Assembly: GCA_037147235.1 (NCBI GenBank)
Contig: JBAWVO010000001.1
Span: forward strand, 1 to 58,479
DNA: 58,479 nt
Reading direction: 5' to 3'
Origin: Planctomycetota bacterium
GTDB taxonomy: Bacteria; Planctomycetota; Planctomycetia; Pirellulales; Thermoguttaceae
Shown: in pieces, positions 7,401 to 43,510 of the stretch
Numbering within the stretch: position 1 is the first letter of the stretch
Layout of the letters: each line of letters begins with the position of its first letter
The notes under the pieces: generated by a model
Databases searched by the model: none
Told to the model about the DNA's origin: nothing
What the model saw: only the letters and a program-made list of their open reading frames with translations
Made by a program: the position numbers and the translations under genes

Positions 7401-7404
7401 TGAC

Positions 7405-12788: not shown

Positions 12789-12798
12789 GGGCACCGCG

Positions 12799-22208: not shown

Positions 22209-22261
22209 TAACCGATCCTTCCCCGCCCGGATTATTCACAAACCGTGGGGCGCGTGAAGCT

Positions 22262-22552
22262 ATTCTACCTTTTTGGGGCCGGTCACCCACTTCCGCTCTT
22301 GAAAGAGGCTCTTCCGGTTCTGTGTGCCTGCCGACGGAGTTCCAGCCCCCGCCGCGATCCACGCGGAGCGCGCCCGTTGTAGGACCACTAGGATCGTCCA
22401 CTGGTGAGTTCGCATGGTAACTCTCGTCATACCAATCCGCGCACCACTGCCAGCCCTTTCGGCGGCTCTTTCGTCTCGCTGAAAGCAGACCCCGCCATTG
22501 CAAAAAGCACTACGCAACCAATCACGACGTTTCTCATAACGTGTCTTTCCAT
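22262..22552 (-). pseudogene. Remnant of an FGE/SUMF1-domain gene (signal peptide plus frameshifted C-terminal fragment)
   Basis: The ATG at 22552 gives MERHVMRNVVIGCVVLFAMAGSAFSETKEPPKGLAVVRGLV then a stop. A +1 frame reads GWQWCADWYDESYHANSPVDDPSGPTTGALRVDRGGGWNS, typical of the FGE-domain C-terminus. Most of the domain is missing. Confidence 0.45.
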
Positions 22553-22559
22553 AAGAGAT

Positions 22560-25295
22560 TTAATTTGCAAAATGTTTGCTGACTTCCGCGTGGAGCAGGG
22601 CAGGATCCAGTAGCAACATCGGCTCGAGCCAATCGACGTGGTTGCCAATATCCAGTCCATCGCCTCCACCAGAAACCTCGCTGGAGTTTTCCGTGACGAG
22701 TACGAGTTGCCGGGCGGTGCCCGCCGCAGGTGGCAGGGCGATTTCGCCCGTCGAGACCGGCATCCTCGAACCGACCAGCGGCTGACTCTGATACAGCGGT
22801 GTACCGTTTGCCTGATTGATATAGACCTTGGCGATTGCACAGCCCGCATTGCCGACGACCGCATCGATGCCCACACTGGCGCGGAACGCCCTCACGCAGT
22901 CCGGCAATGCGAAAACCATTTCATTCGGGGCGTGAACGCCGAACCCCCATAGGTAATCCATGCCCTCACTGCGCAAAATGCCGCCGGCCACGTTACGGTC
23001 GGTCTGCCACTTCCAACTCGGTCCTAGCGATCCACGCTGAGTGACCTGTTGCGGAGCAAATCGCGACAGCGGTATCCTGTGCGCGGGTGCCTGCCAAAGA
23101 AGGCGAAGACGAGCCCATGGCACAGGAATTGGATCATGGCTCCAGACCGGCTGCATCCATCGCAGCGACGCTTCGAGTACGCGATCACGTCGCAGTTTCG
23201 CTGGATCAGCCCCTCGCTCATGAGGCCGATGCAGCAACGATGAGGCCCCGGAAGACGATCGGTTCGTGGAAGCCGTGATCACCATCCCCTCGGCGGTTTC
23301 CACTCGCACGATTTCCGCACTACCCTCGGGATCGAGGATCGACAGCTCGCGAAAGTAGGTGTCCCAAGCATCCATTGGTGACAATTGTAGGTCGGCTATT
23401 TCAATCAGGGGGATGCGCTCAAGGCTTTCCTCCGTAAGCACGCTCACGGAATCCGCTCCCCAGCGAACCGCCCGGAAAGCGTAACGGCGGCCGTTGCGAC
23501 AGGTCAGCGTCTTTGGCAGGCAGGGCCGGTCTCGCAAGGACGGGTCAAAGATAATCCGGCGCAACCAATCCGTGTCCACGGAGACCGTTTGCTTTGGATC
23601 TTGAAGAAAACCGATGGGTGGCCGAACGATCAATTGCGAGGATACCGCTTGGTTTTCCTTAGTCGAGGCTGGCACATAGCCGCAGATCGTTCCCACCATC
23701 CGGTCGCCGTTCTGAAATTCCAGCATCGCTTCGGCAGGGGCCATGGGCTGGCGATCGGACTCGGCGCAGCGGCGGTCGAACTGGACGCAAACCCGTGTGG
23801 GCATTGCGGCCGGATCGGGACGCGACACCTTCCCGGAAGGCCCTATCCACCGCCAACCTGTCAACAAGCTACCGTCGAGCCGCAAACCGTTTTCATAGAC
23901 GGCCGTAAGGCGCGACTCGCCACCCATGCGGCGGATGCGCTGAGCCAGGGCGCAGATGTTCTCGACGGCTTCCGGTGTGGTGGCGGTCGGGCTGACGAGC
24001 ATGGCATCGCAATCCTTGCCACCAGGCCCTTCCCCACGGATCACGATCTCGGCAGGCCCTGACTTGAGTTCGATCTGGCCGGCCTCACGCCACACGACGA
24101 CGGCATCAGGCCCGCGGGCATGGGTCACTCGCAACTCTTTACCCTGGACGGATGTTTTCAACGCAGAATTGCCAGGCCCGCGAACCTTTACGCTGTTTTC
24201 CAAGGCTCGCACCCAAACATGATACGTGCCGTTGCGGGGCACATTGATTGTGGTCCTGATCCCTTCGTCGGCGGGTTCACCCTCGGCCGTGACGTGCCGG
24301 TCTCCGAGGTATCGCCCCGCCTCGGCAGGGATATGGGCCGGCAAGCATCGCCAGTTTCCCTCGAAGTTTTCGGCCTGAAGAATGAAAGTACCCGTGGGAA
24401 GAATGGCATCGGTCATATCGAATTCGTAGCGGTGGCGAAGGTAAGCCAGCATGTCACGTCGTTCGGCAAACGAAAGGCTGCGGTTATAGACGATCATCTC
24501 GGCAATTTGGCCGCAAAACAATTCTCCTTCATGGCCCCCAAGCTCCAAGGTGCGGCCACATCGGTCGCTTTCCGGCTTCAACAGGCCAAGCAACGCCACC
24601 GCGCGATCTCCTCCCACCAGGTTGCTTAAACCGTCATGGAATTCCACCGTATGGCGATCGACCTCGCCGTTGGAAATGATCGCGGCAAAGCGTCCTTCGC
24701 CGCGACCATCGCTGGGCAATGTCAAGTCAAGGCTGTAGGCCCGTTCGCCGCGATTGGTGAGATAGCAGACATGCACCCTCGCGAATCCGTCGCCGCGACT
24801 GTGGAGGGCCAATGTTTCTCGCTTGTTCTGGCCGGTGCCCACGGAATACGGGTGGTTGCTCGATGGGCCGTTCCCCATCTGCGACTGAACGACGAGCACC
24901 ACCGTCGAGGTGGCGCGGTCATTCAACATGGCGTTGGATCGCGACAGAGCTTGCTCGCCGTTGAAGGCAACCGTGGGCCGATTGCCCGCCGCAGGCTGTC
25001 GAGCGACAAACAGCGGTGCTCGCTGGGGCACTGCCGCGAGATTAAATTTATTGGACGAGCGATCGTTCCACGCGGCCACCATGCCGTTGAAGTCCGGATC
25101 GGCGGGGCTGCGGCCCTGAGTATCCTTGATGCCGCTGTCGGCCCGCAGCCAAAGCCGCAGATTTTCGCCATTTGGGTCCGGTTCGCCGCTGGAAAGCATG
25201 ACCGTCGCCGCTGTGACGTGTTGAGAGAACACTACCGCAACCAACGTGGCAGCAAGGAATGTCAGGTGAATTGGAAATTGTTTGAGTACGGTCAT
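22560..25295 (-). CDS. Secreted LamG-like / central jelly-roll-like / C-terminal NPCBM-like protein (paralog B)
   Basis: 911 aa. The N-terminus has [13 protein letters not shown]...VAAWNDRS...[10 protein letters not shown]...[30 protein letters not shown] (LamG_3 style). The C-terminus has [29 protein letters not shown]...LVLVTE...GNHVDWLEP (NPCBM pattern). The start overlaps the upstream stop (ATGA at 25292-25295). Confidence 0.85.
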
Positions 25296-27937
25296 GGTAG
25301 GTCGCCCTCGAGAGCCGGACCAGTGGACTGCATCGTCGAAATACGCGTATTGTTGCCAGCCTGTTTCGCTCCTATCTTATTGCCGCTACCTTGGCAGCAC
25401 AATACCTGTTCGCCGCTGACGAGGATCGGCCCCAACGTCACCGCCGAGGCCGGGTTTGTGGAGGGGAATAAACTATGAGCCTTGGTTTTTCCCGAGGCTG
25501 CGTCGATCCAGAGCAGCGCGAGCCGCGATTTGTCCCCTTGCATGACCTGGCAGGCACAAAGAATTTGGCCGGCTGCGTTCCGGGCTAGGGCGGCGTCCAT
25601 GCCTGGCAATTCACGCCGCCAAAGTACCTGCCCCGTCGCAGCATGCAAAGCCGTAAGCCCATAGGTGCTTTGAACCAGGAGCCGATCGTCGTGGAGGTCG
25701 AGGATCTGTTGTAGGCCGATGACGCCCCGCCGCCAAACGAGTTGCCCCGTTCGCGCCGCGAGACATTCGACGGCGCAACTGCCTGGTTGCTGCAAGTAGA
25801 GGAGGCCGCCGGCCTCGCGAGGCAACTGGCAGGGCTGAGAATGGGAAACCGGGTCGATCTCCGCGGGGATCGCGATGCTATTTCGCATCCACTGCACCTT
25901 TCCCTGGAGATCGAGACAGAACACGGCCCCGGAGAACAACACGACCAGTCGATTGCCGACGCAGATCGATTGATACTCGGGCGGCCTGTCCAATGCCGCC
26001 AACCGGTTCGGGGTACGAGATACTTCCGCGAAACCACGCCGGGAAAGCACTTCGCCGCTTTCCGCATCCAATTCCACCAGATACAAGGGAGAGGAAAACT
26101 TTCGGCCCGAATCCGTCGGCGCACCGAGCGTCAAGACAACCAGTCGGCCCTGAATCAACTGAGGATCGCCCGCCACATTGTCACCGCAATCGCGTCGCCA
26201 TAGCCCGCGCCCGGTCTTCTTGTCGAGGCAAACGATTCCATATCTGCCCGAGACGGTTGTCGTTCGGAGGAAGATCCGCGGACCTTGCACCAGCGGGCGT
26301 ATTGGGCTGGACAACACCGACTTGCCTAGCTCCCAACTCCACCGCCTCTTGCCGCTGGCGGACTCGATCGCAATGGCCTGCTTGCGATTACTCACGATCA
26401 GAAGGTCGTCGTGGGCGACCACCGCGATGTTGCCCGACAACGCATCGCAAGAACCGCTCTCGTCGGGTTGCCCCAACGTCGCGAAACAAAACTGCACGGG
26501 CTGCGGAGCGGGAAGGATCGGAAAGGTATCCACAAGCGAGGCCGTCTCCGTCTTCGCCTGCCGGGCAACCGCATCGCGGACCCGTCGCTCAAATTGCTCT
26601 GGAGAGAGGCGGGTTTCGCCAAAGGAAACGGGCTGCTTGGGAGGCTCGCCTCGCAAGTTGCCGAGCATGGCCGAGGCCAGACGGACGCGGGCCGCGAGGT
26701 CGGGCTGCCGATCAGGTGAGGCCGTCGGACGGCCTTCTTCGTACCAGGAAAGGGCTTGGGTAAAGTCGGCTCCCGCCAGCGCGCGGTCGCCCAACCATTG
26801 ACATGCCGAGGCGTGAGCCGGAGTGCCATAGTATTGGACGGTCAACGCCTCGACCGCCATCGGATCACCTTGCGACAGCGTCTGCAGGATGCCGAGCAGT
26901 GCGGCACCGTCGAGTTGGCCGCTCATCACCTCGGCAAGCTCGCGCCGATGAAGCAATATCAGTTGCATGCTGCGGTAGGACACAAAAAGCTGCTCGTCTC
27001 CCGGCGTTGCCATCAAGCCTTCAGCGCGCAAGGCGTAGCTGTTCGTCAGCAGCCGCGCTGCCTCCCGGTACTGCTTATCTTCCAAGGCCGCCCGCAAGTT
27101 CTGGAACAGGCCCGATGCTCCCCGGCTCACGGGCACAATCAGCGGCTGGCGAAGGTCGGCCGTAGGGACGGAGTTCTTGGCCGACCGACCCAAAGTCCGA
27201 TCATACATCCAAGCAAACAACTGCGGGTTGTCCACCGAGCGACGGGCCGGCGGTTGATTGGGTTGCTTCTTGAGTTGCTTCTTGGACTGCTTCGGCTTCG
27301 CATTGACCGGCACTTGACGGGTCGATGGTTGTTTCAGTTGCTTCTCGAAACGCTGCATTTCCTCCCATCGCTGTTCCGCGTACAGCAATCGTAGTACCTC
27401 ATTGACCAAAGACGGCGACAACGGACCGCCGTCGGTCAAAGTCTCCATGCGGGCCTTCTGATACTCCTGGAACTCGGCCTCGGTACCCGTTTCGAGTACG
27501 GCACGGCCAAGCTGTTCCCATGCCTCGATCGAATCGTTGGGATCGAACTGAACATCCGCGACAGCCGCCTTGCGACGTAACTCGGCCGACACGGTGTTGA
27601 CCGTGCCATTCAATTTATCCGCCGGTTTTTCCGCCGGTTTTTCGATTGGCTTTTCGATTGGTTTCTCCGCTGGTTTCTCCGCTGGCTTCTCGATTGGTTT
27701 CTCGGCTGGTTTGTTAGCCATCTTCTCGGTTGGTTTCTCGGCTGGCATTTCGTTAGGTTTCTCGCCAGAATCCTCGACCTGTATCTCGGCAGAACTTTCG
27801 GTCGATGTTTCAGCAACCGTTTCGGCAGGCTTCTCACCAACGCGGGACGTCATGGTTATGGCCAGTAACATCGAAAGGCCAAGGCCGACCAGCACCAAAC
27901 CGGCCCAAATAATCCATCTTCGAGGGAGTTTTATCAT
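25292..27937 (-). CDS. Membrane-anchored PQQ-like (BamB-type) beta-propeller repeat protein with a (KPxE)n spacer
   Basis: I prefer the start [24 protein letters not shown] (ATG at 27937, overlapping the upstream stop as ATGA). It has 12 x 12-bp repeats encoding [10 protein letters not shown]... The C-terminal half carries repeated motifs: ...[13 protein letters not shown], ...[12 protein letters not shown], ...[12 protein letters not shown], ...[12 protein letters not shown] and ...[12 protein letters not shown]. Confidence 0.8.
27618..27761. repeat. 12 x 12-bp imperfect tandem repeat (coding, KP[AI]E periodicity)
   Basis: Units include tccgccggtttt, tccgccggtttt, tcgattggcttt, tcgattggtttc, tccgctggtttc and tccgctggcttc. 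Read directly from the sequence. Confidence 0.85.
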
Positions 27938-30573
27938 TTCGATCCTTTGATAACTTTCGCGTGAAGCAGGACAGGATCCAGTAACAATGTCGGCTCGAGC
28001 CAATCGACGTGGTTGCCAATATCGAGTTCATCCCCTTTGCCGGAAGCCTCGTGGGCGTTTTCCGTAACGAGGATGAGCTGCCGGGCAGCACCTGTCCCGG
28101 GTGGCAAGGCGATTTCACCTGTCGAGACCGTCATGGCCGAGCCGACCAGCGGTTTGCTCTGATAGAGCGGCACGCCGCTCACCTGATCGGCATGGATCTT
28201 GGCGATCGCGCAGCCTGCGTTGCGGACCACCGCATCAATGCCCACGCTGGTACGGAAGGCCCGCACGCAGTCCGGCAGCGTGAAAACCATTTCGTTGGGG
28301 GCGTGAACGCCGAACCCCCATAGGAATTCCATGCCATCGCTGCGCAGGATGCCGCCCGCCACGTTGCGATCGACCTGCCACTTCCAACTGCTGCCCAGCA
28401 CTCCGCGCTGGGTGACCCGCTGCGGAGCGAATCGCGATAGTGGCACGACGTAAGACGGTGCCCGCCAAAGGAGACGCGTGCTGATCCAGGAGACGGGGAT
28501 CGGCGCGCGGCTCCAGGCTGGCTGTAACAGGTGGGCCAGCGCCACGGGATCATTGGGAGCAGCCAAGTGCGACGACCGGATCGTGGAGGCCGTCAGTACC
28601 ATTCCTTCGTTGGCCTCCACGCGAATAATTCCTGCCTTCCCCTCGGGATCGAGGATCGCCAGTTCGCGATAGTACCCATCCCAGGCGTCGTCGGTCGCCA
28701 TTCGCACTTCCGCCACTTCGCTCAGGGGGATCTGTTCGAGGCTTTCTTCGGTCAGCACACTCACCGATTCCGCGCACCAACGGATCGCGCGGAAAGAGTA
28801 GGCGCGACCATTGCGGTGGATCAGTGTCTTCGGCGGGCAAGGCCGGTCGCGCGGCGATGGCTCAAAGACGATTCGCCGCAGCCAATCGATTTCCACGGGA
28901 ATCGCAGATTGGGGAAACCCGGCCGGCATCCGGACAAGCAACTGCGCGGACACCGACGGGCCTGGCTGGGAGGTCGCGGGCACGTAGCCACAGATCGTAC
29001 CCCGCAGCCGGTCGCCGTTCTGGAATTCCAGCATGGCTTCGGCAGCGGCCGTCGACGGACGCTCGGGCACGGCTTGGCGGCGGTCGAACTGGAGGCATAC
29101 CAGCGGAGGCAATGTGGCTGGATCGGGACGCGATACCTGCCCGGAAGGCCCCGTCCATCGCCAACCCGTCAACAGGCTGCCGTCAAGTCGCAAACCGTTT
29201 TCAAAGACGGCCGTAAGGCGCGACTCGCCTCCCATTCCGCGGAGACGTTTGGCCAACGCGCAGAGTTCCTCGACCGCGTCCAATGTTGCGGCCGTCGGGC
29301 TGATAAGCACACTATCGCAATCCTTGCCGCCAGGTCCTTCGCCACGGATTACAATCTCGGCGGGCCCCGCCTTCAACTCGACCTCTCCGGCCTCGCGCCA
29401 GGTCAGGGTGGTCGCAGGACCGCGAACATGAGTGACCCGCAATTCCTTACCTTGAACAATCGTTTTCAACGCTGAACTGTTAGACACCGGGGATCGGAAG
29501 TCGTTTTCCAAGGCTCGCACCCAGATGTGATACAGGCCATTACGGGGTACGTTGATCGTGGTCTTGATTCCTTCGTCGGTCGTCTTGACGTCCGCCGTAA
29601 GGTGCTGGTCACGCAAATAGCGTCCAGGTTGTGTACGGGACCAGGTCCAGTTCCCCTCAAAGCTGTCGGCCGGCAATAGGAACGTGCCCGCGGGAAACAG
29701 CCCGTCGGTCATGTCGAGTTCATAGCGGTGGCGGAGGTAATTCAGCATTTCGCGGCGTTCGGCGGATGAGAGGCCACGATTGAAGACGATCATCTCGGCG
29801 ACTTGGCCGCAGAAGAAATCGGCTTCGCCACCCCCGAGAAAAAAGTCGCGGCTGCACTTGTCGCTTGCCAGCGGCCCGACAAATTGGTTGCGCTCCCCGC
29901 CCATCAGGTAGCTCGTACCGTCGTGGAACTCCAGCGTGCGGCGATCGCTCTCACCGTTGGAGAGGATAATGGCAAAGCGGCCTCCGGCACGACCATCGCT
30001 GGGCAATGCCAAATTGAGGTCGTACCCCCGTTCGCCGGCACTGGTCATATAAACCCCTCCCAACCCCGCCCATCCAGCATCGGGATAGTTCAGGTTCAAG
30101 GTTTCTCGCGTGTGCTGGTTCCTTCCCGTGGAGAAGAGGTGGCTGTTCCGCGGCTGCCCCTGAACGACGAGAATCATGGTCGAAGTAGGACGGTCATGCA
30201 ACACGGAACTGGAACGCGTCAGGATTTGCTCGCCACTAAAGGCCACCGTGGGCCGATTGCCTGCCGCAGGCTGCTGCTGAACGAAGAGTGGTGCCCGCCC
30301 GGGCGCAGCCGCCAGGTTGAACTTCTGCGGCGAGCGATCGTTCCACGCGGCGACCATGCCGTTAAAGCCTGGATCGGCCGGACTGCGTCCCTCCGTGTCC
30401 TTGATGCCACTATCGGCCCGCACCCAAAGCCGCAACTCCGGACAATTCGGGTCCGGTTCGCCGCTGGGAAGCATCGGGGGTGCCGCAGGGGCGAACCGAG
30501 CCGGCACCGTTGCAAACAGTAGGGCCGCAAGGATTACTAATCTTTGAGTTGGAAATGGTTTGGTCACGATCAT
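27934..30573 (-). CDS. Secreted LamG-like / central jelly-roll-like / C-terminal NPCBM-like protein (paralog A)
   Basis: 879 aa, collinear with 22560-25295 and sharing long identical runs (e.g. [49 protein letters not shown]). The C-terminus is NPCBM-like: [29 protein letters not shown]...GNHVDWLEP. Confidence 0.85.
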
Positions 30574-30610
30574 TGGCAGGTGGTCCTAACTACACTCAAA
30601 TACGGCAACG

Positions 30611-30640
30611 TGGCTCGGTCGGAGACCGGCCACAACAAGG
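30611..30640. repeat. Interspersed repeat family 'REP3', copy X
   Basis: tggctcggtcggagaccggccacaacaagg resembles tggctcggtcgggagacctgtcacaacaatgg at 51053-51085. Confidence 0.5.
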
Positions 30641-30718
30641 TCGGCCATAACTCCGTCAAGCAAACACACTAACCACCAACAGGTGGCGTTCAATTCACGC
30701 ACACTAAGGACTGGAGCA

Positions 30719-30807
30719 CCAATAACTGTCGTGTTTTGCATTCGCCGAGCGGGGGCAGACGGCACACGGAGTTTCTTGCGACACTTATTGATGCGCCGAT
30801 TCTAAGC
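30719..30807. mobile_element. MITE/RPE-like element, copy 2 (13-nt deletion of one hairpin arm), overlapping the giant-gene stop codon
   Basis: aataactgtcgtgttttgcattcgccgagcgggggcagacggcacacggag[13 nt missing]tttcttgcgacacttattgatgcgccgattctaagc aligns with copy 1. The TAG stop (30802-30804, minus strand) lies within the terminal repeat gcttagaatcgg. Confidence 0.65.
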
Positions 30808-33800: not shown

Positions 33801-36800
33801 TTTCGATCGACCATATTCCGGGCGACGGAAGCGTTACTTCCGGCAGGCGGAGATCGTTGGGCAAGGCCACCTCGAAGCGATAAATTCTTCGCTGGCCGAC
33901 GTGGAAGGTAATCTTGCTCTCCAGGCTCGGCTCGGTCGGATCGAGTTTAACACTCGTCTGGGCCTCGGCAGTTACCTCGGCGACGGTGGGCGCAACACTC
34001 AGCCGGAGAACAAAGGGCGTCGTTGGAAAGTGATAAGCCTCGTAAGGCCGAATCGCCAACACGCTTTCCTCGGTCGCGGGGCCGCCGCTCAAATCGGGTA
34101 GCACCCCGAGATCGACGCGAGTCACCCCGGATCGCTCCGTGGTACGGACATCCAAGAGCGAGCTGCGACGAATCGTGAGCTGCCCGCTAGAAAGTGCAGC
34201 GTCGCGGACCGTAACCATGGGCACGGCGAACGTGTCCAGCGGTGCATGACCCACCTTGCCGCTTCGCGAAAGGAAAAGGTTGAACTGCTCGGTATCCTTG
34301 GCCGTTTTAAGCAGGCTGACTTCGATGGTTTGTTCGTTGGCCACCCGCCGAACCTCCCAGCCGCGGACGTTGCTTCCAACCACTTTCTCCACAAGGTAGT
34401 CGGCAGGCAGCGACAGCGTAAAGGCATCGCGCTGTCCGCGGCGGAATTCCAGCTTAATGTGCAAGGCCATGCGGAGGCCGTCTTCCTGGACATCCAGCAG
34501 GCTGGCAGTCTGCACGGTCAGGCCGCGATCGACCTGGGCTTCCGCCACCTTCGGACGCCACTGCAATTGCAGCGCCCCGCCAGGCCCGAGTGCCGTCTCC
34601 AGGTTTTCGTCGGGCCGCTGCGTATCATGGATGCGGCGATCGATGGCCTGGCCCAAGCGAACCTCGGTCTGAGGTTGGGGCACTCGGAAAGTGACCATCG
34701 CGGCTGGGGCCGTGGGGAGCGATCCGCTGGTGCCACGCCATCCGCCGACATGCCCCAGCTTGAGGCGGACTTCCAGCTCTAGTTTGTGGGTTCCCTTGCC
34801 GGAAACTTGCAGCACCAGAAGCGTTGCATCCATCGCCGCAGCCTTGCCTCCCTTACTCGGTTTGGCAGACTCAGAGGCGGCAGCGACGACCTTCAGTCGG
34901 GCCGGCTTGCCGTCCAGATCGGCTCGGGCCAACACGCCGCCGCGCAGACCGAGGGGAATGGAGATGTAGCCCTCGGCCAGTACGTTGATTTGCATCTGCC
35001 CGGTAAGGTTCAGCGTTTCCTCGCCTTCGAGCACCGCGCTGTAGGCCACGCCCGACAGGGTGTAGGGCAGAGGAGCCGGATGGGCATCGATCTTCTTGTC
35101 GGGATAGGCCTGGTTCCAAAGCTCGACGTAGCGATCGTAGGGAACCATGAGATGATCCGCGTCTTGGAGGCCCGTCTTCGATTTCACGTCGTAGGGCACG
35201 ATGATCGCATCGCTGGGCACGGCAACCGGCGGCTCCAGGGCCGCGGGTTGCGGCTGGGCCTGAGCGGTTGCCGAGAGCAACAGGGTCAGGGCCAGAACGA
35301 GTGCCGTTGTGACCGCAGTCGGGCTACCGATCCGGCCCGCGAGGCCACGGAGACCTTGGAGGAACCAGCGAACAAGACCCGCAGCCAAGTAATACGGCAC
35401 CAGCAGGCTAGCGGCGTAGAAGACCCCGTTGCAGAGATTCGCCATGCTCACGGTGTCCCAAGCTAACGGTATCAGCGCGGCGGCCAGCGCAAGGCCGAGC
35501 ACCAACGCCGCCTTCTGCCGCACGGGTCGCCTGGTCAGGGCCACGCCCAGCACGAACACGGCCAAGGCCACACCCCAGACCAGGGCCTCGGTACGAGTGC
35601 GGCGGGCCAGCGTAATACCGATTTGCGGATTGGCCCCCAGGCTGCTAAAACTGAGGAGTTGCTCGTCCATCCCGGATTGTTCCACGTCGATCTTCAGACT
35701 GCGAACGCCGAGAAACTTGTCTTGTTTGTAGGTCGGTTTGGAAATCGAGTAGCTGGACTCGCCCCAGCCGCCCTGGGGCACTTTGCCTGACTCGGGCTTC
35801 GCATCGGGTGGCGGAATAATGCTGACCACGTCAGGAGTTGCGGGATACGCCGCAGGCGCGGGTATGAAAGCGTCGTTCCCGAAAGGATCGTCCCTGTCGG
35901 CAGCAGGTCCGCGAGGCGCCGCGGGTGCAGGAGACGCTTCAGTTGCGGGCGGCGGCGGTGCGGATATGTCCGCTTTAGGGGCCTCGTCAAGAGTCGGTGC
36001 TTGAGGCAGATGTAATACCTTTTCCTTGTCAACATTTGGCGGAGGAATGTCCCGGACCGCGTCTTTCTTTTCCTCTCCGTCGCGTCCTTCGGGTTTACCG
36101 CCTTCGCCATTCTGGGCAGCCGCCTTTTCCTCATCTGCCTCCCCTCGATAGAACCCTGGCTTGCGGTGTGACACGTCAGGCTTGGGAGTCGCGACTGTAG
36201 TCGATGCCATTCCGAACTGGCGGAGCTCATTCTTACAACTCGCCGACTTCGCTTCCCCTCCCATCATCACGAATGAGGACGAATGAACCCCACCACCCAG
36301 CACATAGAGCGCACCCGCCACCGCCATCGGAGCGGGCATAGGCCGCTTGATCTGCTTGGCCTCCAAAGTACCGTCGGTGGCCACGACATCGTAGCCGTCA
36401 GGCACCGTGACCGTCCACTCGATATTTACCAGGGGAATCTCGGTCGATTGCTTCGCTGCCTGGCTGGTGCGGTAGAGCAACCGCGGTGCGGTGAGGTTCA
36501 ACCGCCCGCCGTTGGTCACGGCTTGCACAGGCACTTCATAGACGAGTTGCAAACTCCGCGCCGCGCCGGTCGAGCCGGGCGGAAGGCCGATCAGACGAAT
36601 CCCGCCTCGCTTCTGCGGCTTCAGCGGCGCACCGTCCAGTACGGCCGACCAGAGCGACGCCTTTTCCGGCAATTCGACTTCCAGATAGGGGGCCTTGGTG
36701 CGAAGTTGGAATGTGGCCTGGGTCTGGCTCGTGCCATCCGCCGAGAGCAGGGTCGTGAGCTTGGCTTGCTGGACAATCGCCGGCGTTAGCGCGTAACTTG

Positions 36801-39315
36801 GATTGCGGTAGACATCGACCTCGACTTTGGGCGTCTCGCCTACGAAGTCATACGTGCCCAAGAGCCGCATCGGCGGTTGCTTCACACCCCGATTTCCCGG
36901 CTGTTGTTGATTTGGATCAAGACTGACCGGGGTATATTTGGCGATAGCCAACTGTCCGACGTCGGCACGTCGCGCATCGGTCTTCACGTCCACGCCAAGT
37001 TCCAGATCGCCTTCAATCGCCACCAGGCCCGACTGGTAGATCACCGCATCGGCCTTCATGAGCGGCAGGCCAAAATCCTTTAACTCGATGACCTTGCCCT
37101 CACCCCCTGTCTCTTTCCCAGAGGGAGAGGGGAGTAAGTTGCCGACCGTCTGGGGACGCATCTCGAAATCGACCTCCAGGCGGACCTCGCCACGACGGGC
37201 TTCGTCCAAGAGCACGTTCCATCGCCGCATCGGTCCCGCCGGCTCGTGCGTGAATTCCTTGACCGTCACGCCGTCCATGCCGCGGATGGTAAGGGCCTCG
37301 GGGGTTGAAGCTGGAAGCAGAAGGGCCAATCGCCGCGTCTTCGCATCCTCGATCGTATAGAGAACGACATAATGGGCCTTGAGCACTTCCGGAACGATCT
37401 GGAAGAAGGCGAATGTCCGCGCGGTCGCGCGCGACTTCGTGCGATTGACGGCAATCGTCGCCTTGCCTCCGGCTGCTTCGTAGCGATAGGCCAGGTTCAT
37501 CGCCCCGCTGGCCATGCCGAAGCGAGCCATCTCCGCGGCAGTGATTGGCACGAGGCCTTTCACTTTGTCGGGCCGGACTTCCATATCTTCATCGGCCATC
37601 ACGGCCACGGCACCCTCGTCGCGCTGAGCATCGGCAACACGAAACATGGGAAACTCCAGCGATTGGCTCTTCCATGAGCTGAGCCAGCCCGGCGGCGTGT
37701 ACTCGGCGCGGAAACCGGCCACATAGATCTGCCCCGGGGCAATTCCTTGAGGCAGCTTGACATGCACGCGGCCCAGCCGTAGGTCAGGCTGGAAAGCCTG
37801 ACCTACCTTGTCGCTCGTATAACGATCGATGGTTAGCGGCGACTTGTCCTGGCCAGTGACCTCGATCACCTTCCATCCGGCGGGCACACTGAAGTCGAAG
37901 CCAAAACGCTTCTCGGCGGTGGGCAACAAGGCAAAACCACCCTGGACTTCGCACCCCTTGTCCTGAATGTTCAGCAGCAAATTCGTGGTCACGGCAAGTG
38001 TCGCGGGAACACGGCTGAAATCGGCCTTCAATTCATAGCCGCCTTGCGGGGCATAGTATGCGGCGATATAGCGCAGCGGGACCGCGCTGGGATCCGACCG
38101 CACAAGCGTTGCCGGCAACGCCGTAACGAGGACTGCCGTATCGACCGGGATCAGGTCGTTGGTGTTGAGTGATTCGGCCTTGAGTTCGTTCTGAACCAAG
38201 AGACCCAGGACCGTGACCTGGCCGACCACGTCCAGCAGTTCCAACCGCGGCATGTGCCACAGCTTCAACTGGCTGGGCGTCTTGATGGCGGCTATGGAAA
38301 GCACGACCGTGTCGGTCGTCTGCTCGCGGAGCCGCACATTCACGATCTTGTGGCCGCCCTCCGTCTCGATGTCCCAGCGGGCCAAGAGCGGCGAGTTGAT
38401 CTCGGTAACCTCAAACCCCTCGGGCACAACAAAGCGGAAGCGATCGACCGCTCGATGGAGAATCCAGAGTGTCACCGTGGCGTGGAGCTTCTCGTAGGCC
38501 TCGGTCACCTCATCAAACAACACGCACCGCGAGGCCACGGCCTGCTCGCGGCGTTGCAGGTGGCTGTTCAACGACATGAGGATGGTGCAGTCGCCGCTAC
38601 GGGGCAGCAGTTCAAAGCGAGTGACTTTGGCGGCCGCGTCCACCGCGCGAGAAACCACATCCGCCCCGCCTTTGATCTCGACATCGCCCGGCACCGTGAG
38701 CCGCCACCGGCCGACTGCGGCGTTGGTCAAGCGGAAACTCAGATACTGTTGGGCGGAGTTCATTTCGAGCGGAGCGACCATGTCAAGCACCAGCCGATGC
38801 CTGCCTTGGCCGGAGACCAAGAGATTTAGCCGTCCGTCGGCAGCATAACCCAAGGGCGCGGCCTGGTCGTCGAGCTTCGCCGCCAGAAGCCCCACACCGC
38901 TAAAATCGAGCGGAACCGCGTGCAGGCCGTCTTCAAGCACGTCAATGGCGATCACCCCTTGCAACTTCGCACGGCCGTCGTTGACCGTGATGTCGTAGTC
39001 GGAAGAGACGGTCACGGCCGGATGCGGAACGTGCGTTTCCGGGGCCTTCTTGGCTTTCTTGACCAGTTGGTCATATTCCTGCCGCGTCAAGAGTACGCGA
39101 TGCGGCCCACTCTCCAGCAGAACCTTCAGGTCGGAGATTGGAACGTAGATCTCGCGAGTTTTTTGCGGTTCGCTGGCAGGGGATCCAGCCTGTGCGGCGG
39201 CGGTTGCCCACCAAGCGAGTACAGTCATAAGTGCCAGCACCCGAGGAAAATACCACAATCGGTCGGATTGGTCGGATCGGTCCGATTGTGTCGTAATGCT
39301 ATACTGCTTACTCAT
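30802..39315 (-). CDS. Giant (about 2837 aa) membrane-anchored envelope protein made of two fused modules; function unknown
   Basis: I prefer the start MSKQYS at 39315, with GGAGG 8 nt upstream and an 8-nt overlap with the upstream gene. Module 1 has signal-like VLALMTVLAWWATAAAQA, motif EIYVPISDLKVLL...VLLTRQEYDQLVKKAK, a beta-rich body and a TM cluster. Module 2 has AVTTALVLALTLLLSATAQAQP, motif IIVPYDVKS...LMVPYDRYVELWNQAY and two autotransporter-associated beta-strand (PATR)-like repeats. It ends in a G/Q-rich tract and a C-terminal TM cluster. Confidence 0.85.
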   Translation of the reverse strand: MSKQYSITTQSDRSDQSDRLWYFPRVLALMTVLAWWATAAAQAGSPASEPQKTREIYVPISDLKVLLESGPHRVLLTRQEYDQLVKKAKKAPETHVPHPAVTVSSDYDITVNDGRAKLQGVIAIDVLEDGLHAVPLDFSGVGLLAAKLDDQAAPLGYAADGRLNLLVSGQGRHRLVLDMVAPLEMNSAQQYLSFRLTNAAVGRWRLTVPGDVEIKGGADVVSRAVDAAAKVTRFELLPRSGDCTILMSLNSHLQRREQAVASRCVLFDEVTEAYEKLHATVTLWILHRAVDRFRFVVPEGFEVTEINSPLLARWDIETEGGHKIVNVRLREQTTDTVVLSIAAIKTPSQLKLWHMPRLELLDVVGQVTVLGLLVQNELKAESLNTNDLIPVDTAVLVTALPATLVRSDPSAVPLRYIAAYYAPQGGYELKADFSRVPATLAVTTNLLLNIQDKGCEVQGGFALLPTAEKRFGFDFSVPAGWKVIEVTGQDKSPLTIDRYTSDKVGQAFQPDLRLGRVHVKLPQGIAPGQIYVAGFRAEYTPPGWLSSWKSQSLEFPMFRVADAQRDEGAVAVMADEDMEVRPDKVKGLVPITAAEMARFGMASGAMNLAYRYEAAGGKATIAVNRTKSRATARTFAFFQIVPEVLKAHYVVLYTIEDAKTRRLALLLPASTPEALTIRGMDGVTVKEFTHEPAGPMRRWNVLLDEARRGEVRLEVDFEMRPQTVGNLLPSPSGKETGGEGKVIELKDFGLPLMKADAVIYQSGLVAIEGDLELGVDVKTDARRADVGQLAIAKYTPVSLDPNQQQPGNRGVKQPPMRLLGTYDFVGETPKVEVDVYRNPSYALTPAIVQQAKLTTLLSADGTSQTQATFQLRTKAPYLEVELPEKASLWSAVLDGAPLKPQKRGGIRLIGLPPGSTGAARSLQLVYEVPVQAVTNGGRLNLTAPRLLYRTSQAAKQSTEIPLVNIEWTVTVPDGYDVVATDGTLEAKQIKRPMPAPMAVAGALYVLGGGVHSSSFVMMGGEAKSASCKNELRQFGMASTTVATPKPDVSHRKPGFYRGEADEEKAAAQNGEGGKPEGRDGEEKKDAVRDIPPPNVDKEKVLHLPQAPTLDEAPKADISAPPPPATEASPAPAAPRGPAADRDDPFGNDAFIPAPAAYPATPDVVSIIPPPDAKPESGKVPQGGWGESSYSISKPTYKQDKFLGVRSLKIDVEQSGMDEQLLSFSSLGANPQIGITLARRTRTEALVWGVALAVFVLGVALTRRPVRQKAALVLGLALAAALIPLAWDTVSMANLCNGVFYAASLLVPYYLAAGLVRWFLQGLRGLAGRIGSPTAVTTALVLALTLLLSATAQAQPQPAALEPPVAVPSDAIIVPYDVKSKTGLQDADHLMVPYDRYVELWNQAYPDKKIDAHPAPLPYTLSGVAYSAVLEGEETLNLTGQMQINVLAEGYISIPLGLRGGVLARADLDGKPARLKVVAAASESAKPSKGGKAAAMDATLLVLQVSGKGTHKLELEVRLKLGHVGGWRGTSGSLPTAPAAMVTFRVPQPQTEVRLGQAIDRRIHDTQRPDENLETALGPGGALQLQWRPKVAEAQVDRGLTVQTASLLDVQEDGLRMALHIKLEFRRGQRDAFTLSLPADYLVEKVVGSNVRGWEVRRVANEQTIEVSLLKTAKDTEQFNLFLSRSGKVGHAPLDTFAVPMVTVRDAALSSGQLTIRRSSLLDVRTTERSGVTRVDLGVLPDLSGGPATEESVLAIRPYEAYHFPTTPFVLRLSVAPTVAEVTAEAQTSVKLDPTEPSLESKITFHVGQRRIYRFEVALPNDLRLPEVTLPSPGIWSIEKQEPQKGVPSLPLSEGRSILKIQLQQGALGDSAVILRGKLARRAGFSPPHQALDAQQEISLPRLEVLGVKRQEGYIAVQADPAFNVQARDLRDCQETELQRVAAWLDPQLRAATRLALHYASGGYAGKLRLVPRTPEVVCDTITNIRITDRAIEETIFLNYNIRNAGIHELSFLLPASMADARISTPMLRRKTVAPVDPKAADSPLRVQIELQGDAMNDLRVLVENDRLLTPGSHLAPLPSFQAAAGGTTGFVRHQYAVLQTTNRDELVVEPLNGLEVLSRQQQQWQTLSELLGTKRLYQAYLLQPGAVQPRLSFHLQRHEEVETSGARIDLAQTTIVVDANGAYRAKVELSLDNSSEQFLDVELPEGATLWTVHVAGEPVKPGQVPGAKDARHVLLPVRKTAKGDLNYLVVLKYGGKMPPLSVMSSMQFPLVRNVKSGRTSELGRQGNIGIEQSQLEIYVPKSHQWFAFDGTMHPTADEADLKAGRLAAFNKQGQRLIEATHDKDPFTRVRAAENLKNWVTEAEKSQDVTGRVGNQALQSQLSANSSTAQQAKDLLKSSPGGEQQGDETTVDNRERLNDLYQKQDVVNAKGSLNLAGNNSYSGGTTINAGALNAGALAVQNSTDFNGNWITRNNLNNDVAVAQQPSQANEPPTGGKPTSPYSQQDDAQYFPPGMQTGLVKQGAGNLTLSRANTYSGQTVFNGGVLQTANPNLANGRINLNTAEQFGGQGNFGNANPFSNSRGGFGGGGASGGGAQAGKMQEQAQPQMPNAQSPGQQLYGRRSGTRDDQKRELGEYQQKLSVANNLNQPQAQSVDRANQPSGGAVMGMGMGMSTSPASAPVVPPSGYPSGSTMTEESRKQEWAVNPGHATAAPAAPTAPAGLASLDFELPTDKSLYELHRFTTPRGEAELTARTISNHMLAKLGLLAGIAAACLLIWAASWLIRRGALAWFRRPAGAALLAIAGLIALCGGMLPVVGLIAMLTGIGLLVAHLWRRRMVA
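37096..37134. repeat. REP-like GC hairpin element translated in frame inside the giant gene
   Basis: The coding strand ctcccctctccctctgggaaagagacagggggtgagggc encodes LPSPSGKETGGEG. It resembles ctcccctctcccttcgggagaggggcagggggggagagc at 57167-57205. Confidence 0.5.
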
Positions 39316-42300
39316 GGCTCGCACCTCCATTTTTCGCCGCAGGGGGTGAAGCTATCTCTTTTCGGCTTGCGACCCATGCAGACCCCGTTGTACCAAACGC
39401 CGTAACCAGAGCCATCAGCGGCCGATAGAGCCGGAACATTCCCACGATCGACCAGAGCAGTAGCACGATGGCCACGGCCGCGAACAACGGCCCGCCTAGA
39501 ACGTGCAGTGAGAACTTCGGCCAGAAGACACCCAGCAGCACCAAGGCGACGACAAACACGCCCACGGCGATTACGCGACGCGCCAAGCTCGTTCGCACCA
39601 GTACGACACCACCAAGCACCACCACGCCGAAAATCCAGGCGTTGAGCGTCTGATGGTCGAGCGTCCATAGCCTGACGTTACTCTGGGCATCCGGTCGCAG
39701 CGTGGAGAAGATCAGCGGTACGCCGTCGAAATGGAAGGTTTTAGCGGCACCCAAAGCACCGCTATTCCCTTCGCAAACCCACTCCACCTTCTTTTCATGC
39801 GTTTCTGAGTTGAAGGGCATCCAGCGGTCTTGATATCCATAGCGCCACTGAAAATCCTCGGCCCACGATCCGGCAGTACCCACGACATCTTGCGTGGGAG
39901 GCACGAAAGCGCACAGGTAAACCTTTTGCACCGCCGTATCTTCCGAAAACGTCGGCAGCAAGAGAGTTCGCCCACTCTTGACCGTATAGCGGATCTCCAG
40001 CACAAATGGCTCGTCGGCGTTTGCGCTCAACAGGGGCACGACGAGCGCGTCGCCCTCGCCTTTCCGCAAGGTTACCAGTTGGCCGTTGATCCGCACCGGG
40101 TCGCTGTCAGGGGCGGCATCCGTCGGCAATTGCACGGCCAGCCAGGGGCGAACGCTGCGAATACGGTAGACAGCCTGTACGGCGGTCTCGCCTGCCGGCG
40201 TGAGCACCATGCGGCAGACGGCCCGATCGATGCTGGTCCGCTTCACCTCTTCCAGTTCGTAGCGAGTTACCTTGACCGGCAGCGTCCATTCGTCGTAGAA
40301 CTCGAAGGCTCGCGCGGCTCCGCCCACGGGAGTCGTCAGATCGCGCTGCGGGTCGATGGGCCGCAGGCCCTTGATATCTTCGGCCTCCTGGAAATCGAGC
40401 GTTTCCGCCTTGGTTAACACGATCTGGCCAAAGGCCCGATCAACGTCGCGGGGAACAAGCCTCGGCACGGCCACTTCCAGCGACTTGCCCACCTCGAGCT
40501 TGTCGAGCTTCTTCTCCCACACCAAATCGATCTGCCCTTCACCCAGCAGTTCACCTTCACCCGTCAGACTCCATGCGACCATGTTCTTGTCTAGGTCGGC
40601 GGGAGGCGGGTCGAGGGTCTTCTCGTGAATGCCGGCGGTGGTGTTGCGGAGCAGTGGGGCCACGTCGGCCGGAACGTCGATACGGAGCGATTTCACGCCG
40701 CTGAAATGGATCGAGTAATAAAAGGTTGCCTGGTACTTGATGACCCCCTCGTCAATTCGCGCCACGAGCAACTGGCGGATCGTAACTTGCGGCTTGCGCC
40801 GCTCGGCCGTCAGGCGGAGTACAACCGGCTCCTGAGTAAACGTAAAGGCCAGCACGGGACGAATCGCAGAAACGCTGGCTGGCGACCGCTCCACGGCAAT
40901 GCCTTCCGTCGCCTCTTGGTACGACACGGGCCGCAAACCATCGGCCTTGGCTGGGCTAACCCGTAGACTCTCGGGGGCATGTACGATCAGCCTTCCGGAC
41001 GCGTGCTCGACCGTTGTCTTGGTTGGTTGCGGCAGCGGCAAGTCGATCTCGGCCGACTTACCCGTGGGCGTCAGCAAGTTGGCCTCGTGCAGATCGCGCT
41101 GCAACTGCACCCGCAAACCGACGCGTCCCAGGGCCTTGCGAGCCAAATTCACGATAAGATGGTTCTTTTTTTCGCCCTCGACATGAAACGAATCGATCTC
41201 GGCTGCCGAGGAGGAGGCCGCGGGCGTTGTCCCGGGCACCGCGGGCACAGCCACCGGCTTGCCAATGACGCTGCGAACTTCAAAACCCTCCGGCACGTCG
41301 AGCTCCAGCTTGAAGATGCCAGCCCGCTCGATGGTATAAACGGCCGTCAGATTGAGCGTGAGCTTTTCCGGCTCCAACTGGACATCGACCAGCGAATCGA
41401 CGGTGATCCGCGGCGCGACTTCCTCAACGGCCAGTTCCAACTCGAACGGCACCGAGGCATAGCGATAGGCGAAGGTCCAAACGGCCGAACGGAGCGTCGG
41501 CGGAAGCTCGTTGGCATCGACCTGCAACAGGCCGCTGGTCTTGGTCGCCTCAGCACGCAGGCCCGAGCCGACCTGGGCCACAACGAAACCTTGCTGGCGG
41601 CCGACATTGAGGGCCTTGACCACGGGCAGCTTGAGCGACTCAACCCGTTTCTGGCCGGCAATTTTCTCCAACTCGACGACCACCGACTGCGCGGTCTTGG
41701 CCGGCTCGAACAACTGCGCCGTAATCTTCTGTACGGTTGAGCCAGCGGCTGGCGGTTCGACCGACCACTGCCGCACGTTGGGATCAAAGACATTGACCAC
41801 CTTGAAATCGGCCGGGACTTCCAGGGCGATCTGGTTCAATTCCGCGCGGCTGATCGTGTAAGCCAAGGTCGTGCGAGTCCGCGCGATCCCTTCCTGGATC
41901 CATACCTGCTGCTCCGACTGCACGTTGGCCAATGCCGTAAGCCCCGTGGCGCCTTCGGACTTGGGCGTCCAGTCGATCCGCACTTCGGGTGCAGCACCGA
42001 CAAAGGCTAGGATGACCGTCTCGTCCACCTTCTTCTCATTCGGGAGCGTAGGCGTCCCGCCTGCGTCCAGTTTCTTACTCGTAGCAACCGGCGGCACTTC
42101 CGTTGCGGCAATCAACGGATGCAGATTGACCTTCACACCCGCCTGCGGGATACGAACCTTCCAACGGCTCACCGCGGCCTGCGGGGCCTGGAACGATACG
42201 CAGTTTTGGCCCGGCGAGCGCGTGATCGCCCGGGCATATTCCAGAACCAATTCGATCTGCTCCGGCTGCTTTCCCTTCTTTTCGATCAACAAGCGATGGT

Positions 42301-42805
42301 CTTCATGGGTGTCCCCCAGTATCCGTGCCGGTTCGTTCTTGATCGTCGCACGGACGATGGCCGCATCGGCCAGCCGCAACGGCACCTCATGCCATCCTTC
42401 GGCGAGCAGATCGATCTTCAGATGGGCGGTGACTTGCACAACGTCCTTGGCCACCACGGCCTCGTTTTCGATTTCGGTAATCATCGCGCCCATTGGCGGG
42501 CGAGGTTCGGCTGCCGGACGGGTTTTGTCCTGGGCCGCTTTCCAAAGCTCATCGAACTTCTCGTAGGGCAGGAATACGCCGCGGCCATGCTTCTCGAAAA
42601 CGCCGCGAAGCTTTTCGTAGGGGATGTAGATCTCCTGCTCGCGAAGCGAGCGGTCGGCCTTGGCGTCAGCATCGGCCGCCGTAACAGGGGCCGGTTTTGC
42701 CGCCTCGCCTTTGCCGTCCGCGGCCACGGCCGGAGATAAGGCAGGGAAAGAAGCAAACGCCACAATGGCGAATGCACAAACCAACGAACGAAAAATGAGC
42801 GCCAT
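39308..42805 (-). CDS. 1165-aa membrane-anchored envelope protein, paralogous to each module of the downstream giant gene
   Basis: I prefer the start MALIFRSLVCAFAIVAFASFPALSPAVAA (ATG at 42805, with GAGGA 7 nt upstream). It has motif EIYIPYEKLRGVF...VFLPYEKFDELWKAAQ. Recurrent blocks have the form ...ELDVPEGFEVRSV... and ...LRIDVPADVAPLL... The C-terminus carries 3-4 TM helices (AWIFGVVVLGGVVLV, VIAVGVFVVALVLLGVFW, LFAAVAIVLLLWSIVGMF). Confidence 0.85.
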   Translation of the reverse strand: MALIFRSLVCAFAIVAFASFPALSPAVAADGKGEAAKPAPVTAADADAKADRSLREQEIYIPYEKLRGVFEKHGRGVFLPYEKFDELWKAAQDKTRPAAEPRPPMGAMITEIENEAVVAKDVVQVTAHLKIDLLAEGWHEVPLRLADAAIVRATIKNEPARILGDTHEDHRLLIEKKGKQPEQIELVLEYARAITRSPGQNCVSFQAPQAAVSRWKVRIPQAGVKVNLHPLIAATEVPPVATSKKLDAGGTPTLPNEKKVDETVILAFVGAAPEVRIDWTPKSEGATGLTALANVQSEQQVWIQEGIARTRTTLAYTISRAELNQIALEVPADFKVVNVFDPNVRQWSVEPPAAGSTVQKITAQLFEPAKTAQSVVVELEKIAGQKRVESLKLPVVKALNVGRQQGFVVAQVGSGLRAEATKTSGLLQVDANELPPTLRSAVWTFAYRYASVPFELELAVEEVAPRITVDSLVDVQLEPEKLTLNLTAVYTIERAGIFKLELDVPEGFEVRSVIGKPVAVPAVPGTTPAASSSAAEIDSFHVEGEKKNHLIVNLARKALGRVGLRVQLQRDLHEANLLTPTGKSAEIDLPLPQPTKTTVEHASGRLIVHAPESLRVSPAKADGLRPVSYQEATEGIAVERSPASVSAIRPVLAFTFTQEPVVLRLTAERRKPQVTIRQLLVARIDEGVIKYQATFYYSIHFSGVKSLRIDVPADVAPLLRNTTAGIHEKTLDPPPADLDKNMVAWSLTGEGELLGEGQIDLVWEKKLDKLEVGKSLEVAVPRLVPRDVDRAFGQIVLTKAETLDFQEAEDIKGLRPIDPQRDLTTPVGGAARAFEFYDEWTLPVKVTRYELEEVKRTSIDRAVCRMVLTPAGETAVQAVYRIRSVRPWLAVQLPTDAAPDSDPVRINGQLVTLRKGEGDALVVPLLSANADEPFVLEIRYTVKSGRTLLLPTFSEDTAVQKVYLCAFVPPTQDVVGTAGSWAEDFQWRYGYQDRWMPFNSETHEKKVEWVCEGNSGALGAAKTFHFDGVPLIFSTLRPDAQSNVRLWTLDHQTLNAWIFGVVVLGGVVLVRTSLARRVIAVGVFVVALVLLGVFWPKFSLHVLGGPLFAAVAIVLLLWSIVGMFRLYRPLMALVTAFGTTGSAWVASRKEIASPPAAKNGGASHE

Positions 42806-43042: not shown

Positions 43043-43396
43043 CTAACCTCGGCATCCCGAAGTTGCCAAGACCTTGACGGTTCCACGGTGCCCGCCGCGC
43101 GTGCTTCCCGGACGGAGAACAATATCCACATCCACCGCCAAGGCATTGAGGAGTTCCAGCAACCGCTCCACGGAAAAACCCGAAAACCGGCCGTTCATAA
43201 GCTTGGACACGTCAGGCTGCTTTAGTCTAAGTGCTTTCGCTGCCTTGATCTGCGACAGTCCGAGGACTTTTATCCGCTGATAGAGCTGGCGAGTAAGTTC
43301 CGCCTTCGTTTGCAGATCATCTGCATTCGGAAGGTCGAGATCGGCAAAAACATTGTCGCTGCCCTCCACGACCAGAATCTTATTGATCAGTTTCAT
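43043..43396 (-). CDS. XRE-family HTH antitoxin (HigA-like)
   Basis: MKLINKILVVEGSDNVFADLDLPNADDLQTKAELTRQLYQRIKVLGLSQIKAAKALRLKQPDVSKLMNGRFSGFSVERLLELLNAL matches the HigA/XRE pattern. ATG at 43396. Confidence 0.75.
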   Translation of the reverse strand: MKLINKILVVEGSDNVFADLDLPNADDLQTKAELTRQLYQRIKVLGLSQIKAAKALRLKQPDVSKLMNGRFSGFSVERLLELLNALAVDVDIVLRPGSTRGGHRGTVKVLATSGCRG

Positions 43397-43495: not shown

Positions 43496-43510
43496 GATCA
43501 CCCCCCAAAC

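Follow-up and report, generated by a model that had tools for sequence, protein, structure and literature searches.

A conserved gene pair encoding giant membrane-anchored proteins, predicted to be translationally coupled, adjoins a probably separate lectin/propeller module in a Thermoguttaceae planctomycete

The minus strand of contig JBAWVO010000001.1, a 58,479-nt stretch of a Planctomycetota genome (assembly GCA_037147235.1; hereafter the window), carries five open reading frames (ORFs) that fill positions 22560-42805 (Table 1). In reading order they encode two giant membrane-anchored proteins (G1 and G2), a lectin-like protein (LecA), a PQQ propeller protein and a second lectin-like protein (LecB). 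Comparison with related loci indicates that this 20-kb block is very probably a composite locus, in which two envelope gene modules, independent of each other, have come to lie side by side in this lineage. The first is the G1-G2 pair, which by its sequence is an independent, widely conserved and translationally coupled pair of Pirellulales/Thermoguttaceae-type planctomycetes; the second is a rare block of Lec and PQQ genes. The initial annotation had proposed that all five genes form one system, and had named a gene order not conserved in relatives among the findings that would count against it. The proposal did not hold up, as only the succession of G1 and G2 is kept. The whole explanation offered below, which joins the juxtaposition to a scaffold role for G1-G2, is the one we somewhat favor.

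The layout first described was reproduced at the level of the sequence. ORF calls agree with five same-strand genes over ~20 kb, and direct reading confirms both the 8-nt overlap of G1 and G2, with a GGAGG placed 8 nt ahead of the G2 ATG, and the ATGA overlaps that join LecA to the PQQ gene (27934-27937) and the PQQ gene to LecB (25292-25295). Hydropathy likewise upholds the claim of a signal or transmembrane (TM) segment in every product (for G2, the hydrophobic stretch at the N terminus was recognized by eye), supporting an envelope destination for all five. The suggested lack of catalytic motifs is also supported, since scans with Pfam, NCBIfam and PADLOC detected no catalytic domain. An alternative GTG start at 42919 would extend G1 to 1203 aa; the database copy and homologues begin at the ATG.

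A scan of species-representative genomes yielded 273 encoding stretches, and the locus counts given here refer to the best 80. These come from metagenome-assembled genomes (MAGs) labelled Thermoguttaceae, Pirellulales, Pirellulaceae, Planctomycetia and similar, with a few labelled Phycisphaerae or Anaerolineales, possibly through errors of binning or labelling. A G2 orthologue, usually one ORF of 2500-2900 aa, directly follows G1 in all 70 loci from other species that extend at least 800 nt beyond G1. The junction is conserved as well: the overlap is exactly 8 nt in 56 of 72 loci, and a GGAGG-like putative Shine-Dalgarno site lies upstream in 57 of 72. Conservation of this overlap and its Shine-Dalgarno-like site accounts for an invariant Gly-Gly near the C terminus of G1. 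No other neighbor of the pair is conserved, with no flanking family common to more than 8 of the 80 loci.

The family is large and without annotation. An identical 1165-aa G1 protein is present in the database, and a word-indexed search returned more than 964 relatives, every one named hypothetical and none with a Pfam domain. Searching with a G1 profile, we found 5044 clusters (50% identity) at E ≤ 1e-3, and the stricter limit of E ≤ 1e-30 left 1296; when cluster members were looked up for ten distant representatives, these were solely 'hypothetical protein' entries from MAGs. Among the orthologues, those with ~45-48% identity include sequences labelled Blastopirellula, Rhodopirellula and Aureliella. 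In one Thermoguttaceae assembly (JBKQVT01), two G1 loci (L008 and L024) lie on separate contigs, so the pair may be present twice in some genomes.

The Lec and PQQ genes do not accompany the pair in any of the 80 G1-related loci. In one genome (L090/L091), whose G1 is 89% identical to that of the window, the upstream genes are syntenic (GFO_IDH_MocA, FGE-sulfatase, ApbE), and nucleotide similarity stops at window position 30811, the G2 stop codon, after which small unrelated ORFs follow. Locus L092 (G1 77% identical) shows the same stop, with a Y1 transposase beyond G2. Synteny with L090, L091 and L092 ends at window positions 30811-30856. Because it stops there, and because Lec and PQQ genes occur elsewhere, we take the 228-nt gap between G2 and LecA, the sole gap in the five-gene block, to be the breakpoint between independent modules.

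A single co-transcribed envelope system, for example one that displays lectin and propeller heads on a giant membrane scaffold, would fit the common strand, the 8-nt and 4-nt overlaps, the envelope destination of every product, and a gap in which we found no promoter-like site and a terminator-like hairpin no better than chance. Such a system is nonetheless unlikely, as the five-gene arrangement was found in no other genome, different genes follow G2 in the nearest relatives, and the gap, a synteny breakpoint, carries an interspersed repeat. Moreover, Lec genes, and PQQ genes followed by Lec, are found in other contexts, beside MoxR/DUF58, FGE-sulfatase and DUF5703 genes.

We examined the architecture of the two giant proteins. 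An AlphaFold2 model of G1, built with 39 homologues (mean predicted local distance difference test score (pLDDT) 75.7; predicted template modelling score (pTM) 0.41), comprises an all-beta ectodomain (aa 107-1050) with a disordered loop (aa 232-291), followed by helices (aa 1051-1148). Hydropathy peaks at aa 1052-1070, 1078-1096 and 1106-1124 mark three TM helices. The best-conserved stretch of the family is an N-terminal motif, in which 22 columns between aa 56 and 88 are invariant across the 39 homologues, down to 52% identity. The recurring 'ELDVPEGFEV' blocks (h.h.VP.GF.V) that had been noticed in the giants arise because G1 holds three homologous units of ~180 aa. Sub-alignments of these units match one another profile-to-profile in hhalign (U1/U2, E 1e-9; U2/U3, E 4e-11; U1/U3, E 8e-6).

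G2 resembles two such proteins in tandem. By BLASTP, G1 aligns to G2 aa 1376-2048 (E 3e-30) and to aa 57-~760 (E 7e-22), with 22-23% identity in each half. The N-terminal motif, previously described as common to the giants, does recur: a hidden Markov model (HMM) of it matches G2 orthologues at the N terminus and at ~aa 1270-1630, the starts of the two modules. The matches are weak, but most of 49 G2 proteins (48 orthologues and the window's own) show them in both of these places. Hydropathy gives a TM layout across the three modules of 3 helices in G1, then 4 and 2-3 in G2. The fourth central helix of G2 (..LTLLLSATAQA/QPQP) ends in AQA/QP, at about aa 1354-1356, immediately before module B and, on the predicted topology, looks like a signal peptide kept by that module. 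From this arrangement we infer that two G1-like genes fused in frame to give G2, an event that would leave such a central TM layout. Orthologues are 45-93% identical, versus ~22% between the paralogous modules, and the triplication is therefore old. G2 additionally carries long low-complexity linkers and two PATR repeats, which score 57.1 bits with PF12951 (cut-off 27) and 55.5 bits with TIGR02601.

Apart from PATR, neither protein has a match in Pfam, NCBIfam or PADLOC, across scans that covered the five window proteins, the G2 halves and 39 G1 homologues at relaxed E-values. The PDB sequences hold no relative of G1, whether searched with its sequence or its profile. In support of the initial annotation, which could not place their shared motif, these results assign the giant modules to none of the named families, and those it had raised were each negative. 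BatD (PF13584) gave no match at E ≤ 10 for G1 and both G2 halves or at E ≤ 1 for 39 G1-family members, and an aerotolerance operon is not indicated, with no MoxR, DUF58 or VWA (BatA/BatB) gene conserved beside G1-G2 in the 80 loci; the flanks in the window hold HTH, ApbE and SUF genes and hypothetical proteins. DUF4139/DUF4140 (MuiA, TIGR02231) had no Pfam or TIGRFAM match. For alpha-2-macroglobulin there was no Pfam match, no C[GLS]EQ thioester motif in G1 or G2, and no entry among the top 50 Foldseek matches. A type V autotransporter was rejected too: PATR repeats are present in G2, but no barrel HMM matched, and the C terminus consists of hydrophobic alpha-helical TM segments. Weak EF-hand_EFHB_C matches on the N-terminal motif (best E 0.02) were treated as noise.

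Comparison of the G1 model with PDB structures by Foldseek points to shape rather than family. The best match is an integrin alpha leg (3fcs_A, E 1.4e-9), followed by ribophorin I/Ost1 (6s7o_E, E 6e-9; 6ezn_A, E 2e-8); the beta-sandwich that forms the N-domain of LTA4H and the M1 aminopeptidases (APN) is also matched, and ribophorin I/Ost1 and these N-domains together span E 6e-9 to 1e-4. Like the thigh, calf-1 and calf-2 domains of the integrin, G1 and G2 form an extended beta-sandwich string ending in a membrane anchor. Integrins are heteromers of paralogous chains, an assembly that G1 and G2 might share. Unlike integrin alpha, they have no FG-GAP propeller head or Pfam integrin domains, and the root-mean-square deviation (rmsd) of 28 Å marks a shape analogy, not membership. 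Among viral models (BFVD), G1 matches DUF11-type arrays. Both sets of matches are generic beta-sandwich arrays, and a phage or defence origin was rejected.

Together, G1 and G2 encode one building block in three copies that diverged long ago. The block consists of a signal peptide, the nearly invariant N-terminal motif, a ~950-aa beta-sandwich string with three ~180-aa repeats, and a three-helix anchor. These features suggest a model, itself tentative. In G2, the second signal peptide would be kept as the fourth TM helix, returning module B to the periplasm. Gene fusion, together with the 8-nt overlap behind a Shine-Dalgarno site, would fix production of the three ectodomains at 1:1:1. The ectodomains would then form a hetero-oligomeric, non-enzymatic stalk or scaffold that is held by the cytoplasmic membrane and extends into the periplasm. 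At its tips, far from the membrane, the conserved N-terminal motifs would make the contacts, whether among themselves or to an envelope partner that all three share. At its most speculative, and here we would be surprised to be right, the pair would be the core of an undescribed, Pirellulales-wide envelope structure: three stalks of ~7 beta-sandwich domains each, anchored in the cytoplasmic membrane, whose invariant N-terminal tips engage peptidoglycan, the outer membrane or a crateriform or fiber apparatus. Such a structure would set or maintain the unusually large periplasm of these bacteria.

Alternatively, G1 and G2 could be surface adhesins, or a fiber or outer-layer component beyond the outer membrane, with the C-terminal helices acting as a temporary or sorting anchor. 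The PATR repeats, typical of autotransporter passengers, and the long linkers of G2 would suit this role, as would the Foldseek matches to mastigoneme proteins, integrin legs and adhesin domains of Gram-positive bacteria. We consider it rather unlikely, given that Pfam and NCBIfam revealed no autotransporter beta-barrel, sortase, PEP-CTERM or type 1/type 9 secretion system signal, that the three-TM anchor is conserved in each module and that no secretion genes are conserved nearby. Very unlikely, finally, is that G1 and G2 are remote relatives of accessory membrane proteins of the BatD, DUF4139/MuiA or ribophorin-I/Ost1 type and assist a MoxR-VWA or glycosyltransferase machine encoded elsewhere. 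For it speak the ribophorin I/Ost1 Foldseek matches, which cover ~460-500 columns (E 6e-9 to 2e-7), and the like general layout, with TM helices C-terminal to a beta-sandwich ectodomain; low TM-scores, the absence of BatD, DUF4139/4140 and Ribophorin_I HMM matches (E ≤ 10 in the window, E ≤ 1 in 39 members) and the lack of any MoxR, DUF58, VWA or STT3-like gene conserved beside G1-G2 speak against it.

Ribophorin I/Ost1, a non-catalytic oligosaccharyltransferase (OST) subunit, is like G1 a type-I-like, non-catalytic protein with a tandem ectodomain of ~200-aa beta-sandwiches and a C-terminal TM segment. Its Foldseek target TM-score is only 0.22-0.33 with an rmsd of 17-22 Å, however, and no Pfam match to PF04597 was found in the window proteins or 39 family members. 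G1 also differs in having about seven domains and three TM helices, in being bacterial, and in having no OST catalytic partner nearby. BatD, whose biochemical function is unknown, is an envelope protein that begins with a signal peptide and has its TM helices C-terminal to a beta-rich ectodomain, a description that also fits G1 and G2. Unlike BatD, G1-G2 lacks the BatD HMM match and MoxR/DUF58/VWA neighbors; one PQQ-Lec copy does adjoin MoxR and DUF58 (locus L085, described below).

Several points weigh against the composite-locus and scaffold interpretation. All five genes are co-directional across a gap that has no convincing terminator or promoter, and in this lineage they may be co-transcribed and functionally linked. 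The flank examined was 10 kb for each related locus. For G1, a pTM of 0.41 does not fix the domain arrangement, Foldseek TM-scores of 0.1-0.3 describe generic beta-sandwich strings with no enzyme fold, and the N-terminal motif is modelled with low confidence. The hetero-oligomer and its periplasmic location are read from predicted topology. For the second module, the model of the Lec protein is mediocre (pLDDT 63), and LamG in the Lec proteins lacks confirmation by HMM.

The planctomycete envelope is unusual: the periplasm is enlarged, crateriform structures occur and cells bud without FtsZ, and little is known of its protein components. Uncharacterized conserved proteins are common in planctomycetes, and a membrane-anchored beta-sandwich envelope protein is of a familiar kind. 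Judged from its sequences, G1-G2 is nevertheless an order-wide family without annotation and with a distinctive design of one plus two modules: more than 5000 clusters at 50% identity, strictly paired and coupled, yet with no Pfam, NCBIfam or PDB annotation. The three-fold design suggests a defined hetero-oligomeric, membrane-anchored structure, and the pair is a concrete candidate, open to genetic tests, for a structural component of the Pirellulales envelope. A false lead is also removed, as G1-G2 does not extend to the lectin and propeller genes and the two modules are to be treated separately. A literature search found no description of the G1/G2 or the Lec/PQQ proteins.

The second module (LecA, and the PQQ gene followed by LecB) is rare, with a Lec family of 15 clusters among 5.8 billion proteins. 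LecA and LecB had been called LamG/NPCBM paralogs. Their paralogy (65% identity) and NPCBM domains (PF08305, 45.5 bits in LecA and 47.6 in LecB, cut-off 23.9) stand. The LamG assignment does not stand by HMM, with no match at E ≤ 0.01 for the full Lec proteins or at E ≤ 10 for LecA aa 1-725, leaving a hint at the level of fold. Foldseek with the pLDDT-63 model gave ConA/LamG-like, CBM35 and CBM51 matches, those of the N-terminal part being to the PilC lectin module, a trypanosomal sialidase lectin domain, laminin LG4-5 and neurexin LNS. By the NPCBM domain and these fold matches, the Lec proteins resemble carbohydrate-binding proteins without catalytic function, in keeping with the glycan-binding role proposed earlier. 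They share the NPCBM domain with multi-CBM proteins that contain CBM51/NPCBM (such as Clostridium perfringens CBM51, 2vmg) and have fold-level matches to these and to ConA/LamG-like lectin modules (such as that of Streptococcus sanguinis PilC, 7oa8). Unlike the CBM51/NPCBM proteins compared, they have no attached glycoside hydrolase or other catalytic domain, and the gene is paired with one for a membrane-anchored propeller.

That propeller protein is indeed TM-anchored, as first annotated, with PQQ_2 scoring 89.6 bits against a cut-off of 27.6. It runs from an N-terminal TM anchor through a spacer rich in E, K, P and A and a ~350-aa helical region to the propeller. Assignment as a PQQ-dependent dehydrogenase was rejected because scores fell below the cut-offs (PF01011, 24.1 versus 26.7; TIGR03075, 15.5 versus 480). 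BamB itself was likewise rejected (TIGR03300, 40.8 versus 285; PRK11138, 31 versus 423), the TM anchor, spacer and helical region standing in place of a lipobox. The protein shares its propeller with the BamB-like PQQ_2 proteins. TonB has a Pro-rich (EP)n(KP)n rod, which the E/K/P/A-rich spacer after the N-terminal anchor resembles; the PQQ protein differs in its extra helical region and has no TonB C-terminal domain. A PDB sequence search with LecA and the PQQ protein returned no relative beyond generic propellers. Two longer PQQ homologues (1320-1372 aa; L086 3-240 and L087 3-221) have a greatly expanded E/K/P spacer, with several offset tblastn matches to aa 34-122, and this linker of variable length is reminiscent of a periplasm-spanning ruler.

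Loci lacking G1 and G2 place the PQQ and Lec genes together. A PQQ homologue lies directly upstream of Lec in the contexts of L081 and L085/L086, and upstream of Lec in L087; in L081 the two overlap by 4 nt. L085 holds, in order, MoxR, DUF58/VWA, the PQQ homologue, Lec and a 375-aa protein, an arrangement that hints at a possible link between the Lec/PQQ module and chaperone systems of the MoxR type. In this locus (3933-13800 of ENA ERZ27245846 k141_1354727), MoxR corresponds to AAA_3 and the 375-aa protein is weakly squalene-cyclase-like/DUF6288. In L087 the order is a PQQ homologue, a pair of FGE-sulfatase genes and a pair of Lec genes, and L088 has two FGE-sulfatase genes followed by Lec. 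Since intact FGE-sulfatase pairs adjoin Lec in both, the FGE-sulfatase association appears to travel with the Lec module. Just downstream of LecB, window positions 22000-22503 on the minus strand hold a degenerate FGE-sulfatase remnant (Pfam E 9e-4, under the cut-off).

Taken together, the Lec/PQQ block is probably a separate periplasmic or surface glycan-binding module, tethered by the propeller protein. A membrane-anchored, BamB-like propeller on a TonB-like E/K/P spacer would act with secreted proteins composed of ConA-like, CBM and NPCBM domains, and glycan binding would take place in the periplasm or at the surface.

Table 1. Coordinates of genes and sequence features in the five-gene block (window positions)
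Feature	Position	Strand	Extent	Description
G1	39308-42805	-	1165 aa from ATG	Signal peptide, N-terminal motif, beta-sandwich array, 3 C-terminal TM helices
G1 N-terminal motif	42521-42640	-	aa 56-95	EIYIPYEKLR..GRGVFLPYEKF..LW; nearly invariant, common to both G2 modules
Three tandem G1 repeat units	40241-41932	-	~180 aa each; aa 292-465, 466-672, 673-855	
G1 C-terminal membrane anchor	39362-39655	-		3 TM helices and cytoplasmic helix (predicted)
G1/G2 coupling junction	39308-39328	-		GGAGG 39324-39328, G2 ATG 39313-39315, G1 stop TAA 39308-39310
G2	30802-39315	-	2837 aa; 2842 aa if ATG at 39330	In-frame tandem of two G1-like modules
G2 module A ectodomain	36331-39168	-	~aa 55-1000 of 2842-aa ORF	
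G2 central block	35275-35592	-	aa 1247-1352	4 TM helices (hydropathy)
G2 module B ectodomain	32341-35205	-	~aa 1376-2330	
Two PATR repeats in G2	31591-31773	-	aa 2520-2580	Autotransporter-associated beta-strand repeats
G2 C-terminal TM helices	30817-31029	-		2-3 helices (hydropathy, sequence)
Intergenic gap	30574-30801	-	228 nt	Synteny breakpoint; interspersed repeat ~30720-30798; weak terminator-like hairpin 30672-30687
LecA	27934-30573	-	879 aa	Secreted multi-domain lectin/CBM-like protein, C-terminal NPCBM (CBM51)
PQQ protein	25292-27937	-	881 aa	PQQ_2 (BamB-like) beta-propeller, N-terminal TM anchor
LecB	22560-25295	-	911 aa	LecA paralog

The gap between the modules was said to be filled by interspersed repeats, and a stretch of about 80 nt within it does have copies elsewhere in the window. 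Terminator-like sites in the gap are no commoner than in shuffled sequence, and neither these counts nor its folding z-score of -1.78 is informative. The repeat, ~50-80 nt long, recurs at 17286-17380 and, inverted, at 48597-48678, making three copies in the window with 86-100% identity. Besides the copy between G2 and LecA, one lies at the start of an ORF (17340-18233) and one within an mnmE/trmE-like ORF (47602-49080). Nucleotide similarity of the latter to the mnmE of a related genome (L092) is broken for ~270 nt (48505-48772) precisely at the repeat, which could reflect an in-frame insertion of the repeat into this essential tRNA-modification GTPase gene or, equally, a divergent linker.

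Upstream of G1, scans with Rfam and for tRNAs gave no regulatory RNA or riboswitch. Between ApbE and G1, the minus strand carries an HTH_37/HTH_3 (antitoxin-like) ORF at window positions 43043-43546, the N terminus of which resembles a truncated toxin. A sister genome has other small genes at the same position (HTH_31, DUF3368 and UPF0175), and by these domain matches the region looks like a variable toxin-antitoxin islet.

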